A stretch of 6,453 nt of DNA from a virus (lineage: Duplodnaviria; Heunggongvirae; Uroviricota; Caudoviricetes): IMG/VR virus record IMGVR_UViG_2713896899_000008. The stretch is one strand, 5' to 3'. Under the pieces are notes generated by a model. The model searched no databases and was not told the origin of the DNA. It saw only the letters and a program-made list of their open reading frames with translations. This document shows, one piece after another, positions 5,987 to 6,348 of this stretch (positions within the stretch are counted from its first letter, which is position 1; every line of letters starts with the position of its first letter). The translations under genes and the position numbers were made by a program.

Positions 5987-6013
5987 GCCAGCTACCCAAA
6001 GCTGGCTTTTTTT
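5987..6013 (+). terminator. Intrinsic terminator (+ orientation)
   Basis: Stem GCCAGCT (5987-5993) / AGCTGGC (6000-6006), loop ACCCAA, then 7 T (6007-6013). Confidence 0.7.
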
Positions 6014-6016
6014 GAG

Positions 6017-6039
6017 GTCTGCTCCGGCAGGTTTTTTTT
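6017..6039 (+). terminator. Second, weaker tandem terminator (+ orientation)
   Basis: Short stem CTGC (6019-6022) / GCAG (6027-6030) with loop TCCG, followed by an 8-T run (6032-6039). Confidence 0.45.
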
Positions 6040-6254
6040 ATTCCGGCATATATAACTATGGAGTATTGCGACAACCTGATAAAAGTCTGCATATCGCGAT
6101 CCAACGGTAGAAGCGATAAACGGGCTGAGCGATATGTTTCCAGAGGAGAAGAGGTTGAGCGATACGAAGAAACAGCTAAGTATATTAAGAGAATGTTAAT
6201 GTGCTTCATTGCTGATCAGAAGCTATCGGGATAATCATCAGTTTTTTGTATTGA

Positions 6255-6277
6255 GGCTCGCTACGGCGGGCCTTTTT
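6255..6277 (+). terminator. Intrinsic terminator (+ orientation)
   Basis: Stem GGCTCGC (6255-6261) / GCGGGCC (6266-6272) with one G:U pair, loop TACG, then TTTTT (6273-6277). Confidence 0.55.
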
Positions 6278-6326
6278 CACATCCGCGTCACGCCCGGCGC
6301 ACATCACATCAGATAACGCTATACAA

Positions 6327-6348
6327 AAGGCATCTTCGGGTGCCTTTG
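6327..6348. other. Stable 9-bp hairpin with TTCG tetraloop
   Basis: AAAGGCATC-TTCG-GGTGCCTTT; only a 3-nt T run follows, so it is more likely an RNA stability or processing element than an efficient terminator. Confidence 0.35.

Follow-up and report, generated by a model that had tools for sequence, protein, structure and literature searches.

Why should a cluster of plus-strand transcription terminators stand just upstream of a holin gene, where no gene was thought to end? The question arises at positions 5987–6378 of the Caudoviricetes virus record IMGVR_UViG_2713896899_000008, a stretch of 6,453 nucleotides (nt) that we refer to throughout as the window and that represents the late-regulatory region of a lambdoid prophage. 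The original prediction, made from the letters of the window alone, explained the hairpins as insulators that keep early read-through out of the lysis genes until RNA polymerase modified by the antiterminator Q arrives. Our analysis makes it probable, though not certain, that the cluster consists of relic 3'-end terminators stacked at mosaic joints of the late-regulatory region. Judged from comparison with related loci, each element appears to be the leftover tail of a plus-strand cargo gene that was deleted or swapped, and the whole appears to be ordinary lambda-like mosaic architecture and not a purpose-built insulator. The kind of element is already known, one member of the cluster being, from its sequence, homologous to a terminator annotated in phage 933W. 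The odd pile of terminators would thus be explained without a new mechanism.

Plus-strand hairpins upstream of the holin

The four hairpins of the original prediction are all present, and all hairpins of the cluster are more stable on the plus strand than on the minus strand because of G·U pairs. In order, the elements are T1 (5987–6013; GCCAGC-loop-GCTGGC and a run of seven T), T2 (6014–6039; GAGGTCTGC-TCCG-GCAGG and a run of eight T), T3 (6255–6277; GGCTCGC-TACG-GCGGGCC and a run of five T), the TTCG hairpin H4 (6326–6347), and the holin-proximal terminator T5 (6358–6378; GGGCC-GCTGGT-GGC and a run of seven T), which was found by the scan and folds and was absent from the original list. Thus, four of the elements have at least five T directly 3' of the stem; H4 precedes TTTGATGG and not a T-run, and hence it was not filed as a canonical terminator.

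Folding against shuffled sequences separates the elements further. T1 (hairpin 5987–6006 with its T-run, −12.7 kcal/mol, z −3.7), T3 (hairpin 6255–6272 with its T-run, −17.1 kcal/mol, z −5.0) and H4 (−12.5 kcal/mol and z −3.0 on the plus strand, −7.4 kcal/mol on the minus strand) are more stable than shuffled sequence; T2 (hairpin 6014–6035 with its T-run, −7.5 kcal/mol, z −0.9) and T5 (z about −0.5) are not, part of the T5 stem having been lost relative to the consensus GGGCC-N6-GGCCC followed by six T. Of the three terminators originally listed, T1 and T3 are strong, and T2 folds no better than shuffled sequence. A terminator pattern scan of 5950–6420 returned three sites, all on the plus strand, against 0.6 ± 0.6 in shuffled sequence. 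T3, which the scan missed, draws support from covariation and from homology to the terminator annotated in 933W.

Gene remnants and mosaic joints

It had been stated that no plus-strand gene ends in this region. Remnants of three plus-strand genes do: the first ends at 5881, the second at 6234, 20 nt before T3, and the third is a tail at 6308–6317. Homology to related loci breaks at the end of T1, at the end of T2, and in a GC-rich box just after T3.

The first remnant (5852–5881, plus strand) was recognized in alignments as the 3' end of a 164-amino-acid gene, here called gene X, of which nine codons (PVGAENNEI) and the stop are left; the gene is intact in L006 (2412–2906, ending ...PAGAVDNEI*) and also in L012, L013 and L017. 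In all four of these loci the same 3' untranslated region (3'UTR) of ~105 nt, T1 and T2 follow the end of the gene as they do in the window, and T1 is the gene X terminator. The 3'UTR (5878–5986, plus strand) begins with a hairpin across the stop codon, CTGAAAAT-N4-GTTTTCAG (5878–5897), whose pairs are kept and whose loop varies in a five-sequence alignment. Consensus folding of the five sequences found only this hairpin and T1 to be kept in the 3'UTR, with an unfavourable covariation term of +0.72. The T1 stem is invariant and its loop variable in five relatives, a pattern that is uninformative for compensatory change.

The segment 5852–6045 recurs in other prophages with different surroundings. 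In L005 and L014, which have no yagU cassette, the gene X remnant lies 48 nt after tRNA-Lys; the window matches L005 at 4401–4822, 5865–6042 and 6245–6385, and L005 lacks gene Y (the second remnant, below) as well as yagU. Homology between the window and L006 stops at 4978 and restarts at 5852. In L019, the sole other genome with the yagU cassette, yagU is followed by the gene X remnant and T1, and homology to the window stops exactly after T1, at 6016. From these comparisons, the inverted yagU cassette (~4979–5850) appears to have replaced the body of gene X. T1 and T2 had been placed directly against the upstream edge of the leader of the minus-strand gene, and this placement does not hold: the cassette edge is at ~5850, and ~135 nt of gene X remnant and 3'UTR intervene. 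A blastn search of 5850–6045 against 50,697 phage records gave no match. The exact 19-mer GATAACGAAATCTGAAAAT identified four useful loci in IMG/VR; its matches in L011, L015 and L016 were discarded as chance matches in unrelated DNA.

T2 lies at a recombination joint and is a decayed paralogue of T3. Relatives have GGCC where the window has GGTT, a replacement that accounts for the weakness of T2 in the window, and their version folds at −15.6 kcal/mol (z −4.9). The T2 hairpin in L005, L006 and L012 (GAGGTCTGC-TCCG-GCAGGCC) precedes the same GC-rich box that T3 precedes in the window.

The second remnant (6040–6234, plus strand) comprises the last 65 codons of a 173-amino-acid gene, gene Y, for which no Pfam family was found. 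Window positions 6037–6306 share 79% DNA identity with L004 3001–3270, which is the last third of the intact plus-strand gene plus its T3 terminator and the box and lies 3' of the tRNAs of a Stx-like prophage. The in-frame match (IPAYITMEYCDNLIK... versus ...VPAYITMEYCDDLIK...) starts at 6040, the end of the T2 T-run, and extends to the protein level (IPAYITMEYCD... versus ...VPAYITMEYCD... in L004). The 58-codon open reading frame (ORF) at 6058–6234 on the plus strand, which begins at an internal ATG at 6058 and has no visible Shine-Dalgarno sequence, is therefore a C-terminal remnant, and because the gene Y fragment with T3 and the box is joined at the end of T2, T2 and T3 are paralogues.

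T3 belongs to the phage backbone: in many lambdoid and Stx phages this terminator stands downstream of the tRNA array, and in JLK-2012 and PPompW it lies 12–16 nt beyond the last tRNA. It does not directly follow the last tRNA in the window, where it is 1.28 kb downstream of tRNA-Gly and after the gene Y remnant. T3-type stems occur in 22 distinct versions. In a 23-sequence alignment, 89% of the cells of the stem are paired, versus 79% in shuffled and 33–49% in slid controls, and 10 cells carry double changes versus 2.3 expected, with double changes in four of the seven pairs. The alignment provides good evidence that the T3 hairpin, as read on the plus strand, is under selection.

The covariation bears on whether the hairpins are neutral debris, that is, a mere residue of cargo turnover without function or effect on the lysis genes. 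T2 and T5 have lost stem pairs, and the arrangement is very rare, the entire 5900–6453 interval being present in only 1 of 5,426 complete E. coli genomes, as debris would lead one to expect. Neutral debris is a fitting description of T2 and T5 but not of T1 and T3, which are intact and strong, and the compensatory change in the T3 stem across relatives, together with the retention of the T1 and T5 stems while their loops vary (for T5, as for T1, without information on compensatory change), makes this an improbable account of the cluster.

The third remnant is the tail (ATCAGATAAC, compare AATCTGAATAAC; 6308–6317, plus strand) of a deleted tciB (DUF3927)-like gene, identified by sequence comparison. 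The commonest layout among related loci is tRNAs, T3, box, tciA, tciB (...LRKSE*), hairpin, T5 and holin, with the H4–T5 unit ~10 nt after the tciB stop codon and before a holin different from that of the window. In the window, L002, L005 and L007, the box runs directly into the last bases of tciB, which indicates that tciAB was deleted; a second type of junction, in L125, indicates that this happened more than once. Of the hairpins in the 3' flank of tciB, H4 comes first. A unit of ~95 nt, from ACAAAAGGCATCTKCGGGTGCC through the T5 T-run, is conserved across 30 distinct sequences, in which H4 is kept with a loop of TGCG or TTCG, and it lies upstream of at least two holin types, part of it also before a third. 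The G-run between H4 and T5 (6350–6357) reads GGGGGG in the window versus GGGGGGGG at 7445–7455 of L001, an E. coli locus 99% identical to the window and annotated in RefSeq. RefSeq also places minus-strand 'hypothetical proteins' over the T3–box–hairpin–T5 region (L001 7307–7489, L002 3497–3640); the ORF is not kept in the window, and we treated these calls, which are probably spurious, as such.

Comparison of the joints shows the following. Relatives share a backbone of Q, pR'-like promoter, tR', pT, tRNA array, T3, GC-rich box, cargo, holin-proximal terminator and holin. Gene X with its own terminator T1 lay between the tRNAs and a T3-type terminator, and the inverted yagU cassette replaced its body, leaving nine codons, the 3'UTR, T1 and T2. 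The T2 T-run ends precisely where a gene Y fragment consisting of the last 65 codons, T3 and the box was joined on, and a deletion of tciA–tciB between the box and the tciB stop codon left the 3' flank with the TTCG hairpin and T5 in front of the holin gene essD.

Comparative genomics of phages such as HK97 and HK022 established morons, cargo genes with their own promoter and terminator inserted between the backbone genes of lambdoid phages. As with morons, cargo units in the window have terminators at their downstream ends, with breakpoints of the mosaic at the terminator edges. Unlike in morons, the cargo genes are gone or truncated while the terminators remain: nine codons are left of gene X, 65 of gene Y and no more than a few bases of tciB, and a scan of 5950–6420 found no promoter-like site, so that no intact moron is present. 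The window illustrates concretely how terminators are left behind when cargo turns over in the interval from Q to the holin, and the same interval holds the Shiga toxin genes in related phages.

The GC-rich box beside T3

The GC-rich box CCGCGTCACGCCCGGCGCA (6283–6301, plus strand), 5–6 nt after the T-run of T3, constitutes a conserved joint of the mosaic. At least 120 IMG/VR contigs carry the 19-nt sequence CCGCGCCACGyCCGGCGCA. Among the matches listed, a hairpin (≤ −8 kcal/mol) with a T-run precedes the box in 104 of the 113 loci with enough flanking sequence, and in 34 of the 113 this terminator directly follows a tRNA. The T3 pattern alone (GGCTCGC-N4-GCGGGCC and five T) was rejected as a gauge of how often the box follows T3, since many unrelated phages carry it and it is too unspecific; the scan with this pattern found several different junctions inside the box.

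The closest described counterpart is in phage 933W (NC_000924), in which the 'possible rho-independent terminator upstream of the stx genes' is homologous to T3. The 933W terminator, AGGCTCGCTTTTGCGGGCC followed by six T, stands 14 nt after argO, and the same GC box begins behind it (ATATCTGCGCC); the alignment with 933W (L141 886–920) covers T3 and the initial 7 nt of the box. There, the stx2 cassette is joined after CTGCGCC, at the seventh base of the box, in place of tciA–tciB (L141 910–920). The box is thus cut after 7 nt in 933W, whereas it is complete in the window and leads into the tciB tail. The two phages share the upstream pT promoter and the layout of the tRNA array; T3 follows the array itself in 933W and a truncated gene in the window. 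Other contigs have different sequences joined at the same point of the box, and the cargo found at this site includes stx2, tciAB, gene Y, a Rha gene, a holin leader and an insertion of the IS110 family. In PPompW, an ISEc20 element (IS110 family) lies ~20 nt beyond the box (L009 3547–3569).

Linker sequences that serve as exchange points are an old element of the modular theory of phage evolution. We tentatively suggest, although the odds are against it, that the terminator and the 19-nt box (CCGCGCCACGCCCGGCGCA) form a conserved linker for repeated exchange of late-region cargo in lambdoid phages. Such a linker could, in addition, adjust termination by way of the downstream duplex. If the suggestion is true, T3 and the box would constitute a defined docking site for toxin and other cargo cassettes. 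As the junction of the stx2 cassette in 933W, the box may merit a systematic survey as a cargo-exchange point.

Late transcription control

Lambda-type late control, established for phages lambda, 82, 21 and H-19B, comprises pR', qut, tR' and antitermination by Q, and Q-modified polymerase is known to ignore successive terminators. The window has a Q gene, a promoter-like site, a terminator and lysis genes in the corresponding order. Q, at 3760–4455, matches Pfam PF06323 (1.3e-91), and a late-promoter-like site (TTGCAA-17-TATATT; 4439–4467, plus strand) identified in the promoter scan overlaps its end and, from its position, would act as pR'. A tR'-like terminator, bidirectional in form (element 4519–4550, terminator 4519–4542, plus strand; −17.4 kcal/mol, z −4.4), follows ~55 nt after this site, and the lysis genes come next, namely essD, rrrD and an Rz-like gene in the RefSeq annotation of L001. 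This is the order of a Q-dependent late operon. In lambda, S follows tR' without cargo, whereas here ~1.9 kb of tRNAs, an inverted cassette, three gene remnants and four to five further terminators lie between.

The tRNA promoter invoked in the original prediction is also supported. The scan places pT (TTGCAA-17-TATTAT) at 4629–4657 on the plus strand, 10 nt 5' of the first of four tRNA genes, and the site has a homologue in 933W that is annotated there as 'pT putative tRNA promoter'; the start of tRNA transcription has been mapped in a Stx2 lysogen (PMC7547250). A scan of 4977–5986, from the end of tRNA-Gly (4976) to T1, found no plus-strand terminator-like site, which makes T1 the first stop for tRNA-promoter transcripts. 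These probably cross ~1 kb antisense through yagU before T1, and such antisense transcription could interfere with yagU expression.

In a lysogen, the elements with a hairpin and U-tract would be expected to stop plus-strand polymerase that started at pT or at stray promoters. Having crossed yagU antisense, this polymerase would stop at T1 or T2, the remainder would be caught by T3 and T5, and the holin would stay silent. By analogy with lambda-type Q, modified polymerase from pR' would pass tR', T1, T2, T3 and T5, and the lysis genes would be expressed. The terminators would outlast the turnover of cargo if exchanges take place at or beside them and if loss of the last stop before the holin is costly. 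A shielding of the holin by the terminators is plausible. The practical consequence is modest: the lysis genes would lie beyond a series of redundant stops, which should be passable only to Q-modified polymerase.

The original interpretation, in which a redundant barrier not tied to gene 3' ends is kept for the lysis genes, could draw on the uniform orientation of the elements and on the position of T1 as the first stop after the tRNA promoter. However, each element is contiguous with a plus-strand gene remnant and is elsewhere that gene's terminator; T2 and T5 are decaying; and relatives have fewer elements, L005 having T1, T2 and T5 and 933W a single terminator near S. What survives of the insulator idea is a plausible barrier made up of inherited 3' ends of plus-strand modules, and a dedicated array is the least likely of the explanations that we considered.

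A survey of lambdoid lysis cassettes bears on these alternatives. A plus-strand hairpin with a T-run (≤ −10 kcal/mol) lies within 200 nt 5' of the holin start in 12 of 13 cassettes, versus 28 of 236 (12%) random 200-nt windows of the same loci, a strong enrichment in unrelated phages that supports a real barrier role, would also fit a purpose-built insulator and speaks against neutral debris; counted against our reading, however, the 13 loci are not independent, with about six unrelated terminator sequences among them (including that of the K-12 prophage DLP12), and the minus strand of the same holin-upstream regions scores in 7 of the 13. Several further points weigh on the same side: (i) Termination efficiency and read-through by Q-modified polymerase are predictions. 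(ii) T2 and T5 have decayed in the window; selection does not maintain every member, and some of the cluster may amount to neutral debris. (iii) The TTCG hairpin lacks a U-tract. (iv) Rho could end the untranslated tRNA-promoter transcripts before T1, a possibility that also favours neutral debris. (v) The succession of recombination events was reconstructed from a small number of relatives. Even so, relic 3'-end terminators remain our preferred explanation.

The prophage DLP12 of E. coli K-12 has the same order as the window: Q (quuD), minus-strand cargo (nmpC), a plus-strand terminator and a near-identical essD start. Its terminator, AAACCCGCC-GTCGA-GCGGGTTTTT, lies ~110 nt 5' of the essD start. 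The intergenic sequence of DLP12 is unrelated to that of the window, with only the last 52 nt matching, and it has one terminator versus five. Q, RpoE and Hha have been reported as regulators of the DLP12 lysis cassette; in the literature on DLP12 we found nothing on these terminators.

Small RNAs

Terminator-ended units in this position could also belong to genes for small RNAs (sRNAs). Terminator-ended, Hfq-associated sRNAs are encoded in prophage late regions beside holin-lysozyme operons (10.64898/2026.05.13.724894; PMC13502914; PMC7547250), and 5880–6013, 6320–6378 or both might yield a stable, possibly Hfq-binding sRNA like StxS, PasD, HnrS or a tRNA 3' trailer sRNA. StxS, PasA, PasC, PasD and HnrS are likewise short terminator-ended units of lambdoid prophages, with Q or cargo on one side and the holin-lysozyme operon on the other. 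Both units of the window end in long U-tracts, and H4–T5 is conserved in its 30 sequences 5' of at least two holin types, but this conservation is explained equally well if the units are gene 3' flanks. Nor did direct comparisons add support: a whole-window Rfam 15 search gave no match in 5850–6420 at E ≤ 1 other than rsmX-like noise of 23 bits, blastn against the PasA, PasC and PasD loci of enteropathogenic E. coli E2348/69 found no similarity beyond 13–15 nt, and PasA is on the opposite strand. With no promoter-like site in 5950–6420 and no covariation support for the gene X 3'UTR, we regard dedicated sRNA genes as doubtful. An sRNA that arises as a processed 3' fragment is possible.

The yagU cassette

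The cargo cassette inverted between the tRNAs and the gene X remnant (~4979–5850, minus strand) consists of the yagU coding sequence (5140–5703), annotated in the RefSeq record of L001 and matching Pfam DUF1440 (8e-38), and an upstream region (5704–5850). The cassette occurs in only 2 of 5,426 complete E. coli genomes. On the coding strand, the upstream region stands out as CA-rich (ACACACAGAACAC...CAAACAACACAAAAGACAACAAACAGAAAC); it is open in frame with yagU, which gives rise to a misleading ORF of 280 codons. We rejected this 280-amino-acid minus-strand ORF (5140–5982) as the real yagU, since the RefSeq start is at 5703 and 5852–5982 is present in relatives without yagU. The annotation is corrected accordingly: the yagU upstream region ends at ~5850, and three gene remnants are present beyond it.

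Just 3' of the yagU stop codon, at 5086–5123, is an imperfect 12-bp inverted repeat (CCAACCGGTTAG ... CTAACCAGTTGG) without a T-run, perhaps a 3' hairpin that belongs to the cassette itself. Beyond the tRNAs, the bidirectional terminator at 4542–4519 is the next one on the minus strand.

Other features of the window

The holin gene essD, assigned from RefSeq essD in L001, occupies 6395–6453 with its start region on the plus strand and runs off the window. It has a Shine-Dalgarno sequence, GAGGTGGGG, and a dual start at ATG 6419 and ATG 6428 in the motif ATG AAA TCC ATG; a small hairpin just 5' overlaps the Shine-Dalgarno region (6395–6430). The dual start and hairpin resemble the holin/antiholin start control of lambda S.

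The four tRNA genes (4667–4976, plus strand) were called by ARAGORN as CAT, Lys, Thr and Gly and have Rfam tRNA matches. The first (4667–4742) is Met according to ARAGORN, from its CAT anticodon; its homologue is called tRNA-Ile (ileZ) in RefSeq and in the 933W record, which implies that the CAT anticodon is lysidine-modified.

Besides Q, the window includes a DUF968 gene and rusA. A hok/sok toxin-antitoxin module spans 1576–1900, with an Rfam sok match at 1576–1750 (115 bits) and a Hok-like ORF ending at 1900. On its 3' side, 1909–1990 shows a weak isrK-like match (28 bits, below threshold), with a plus-strand terminator at its end (1969–1986).

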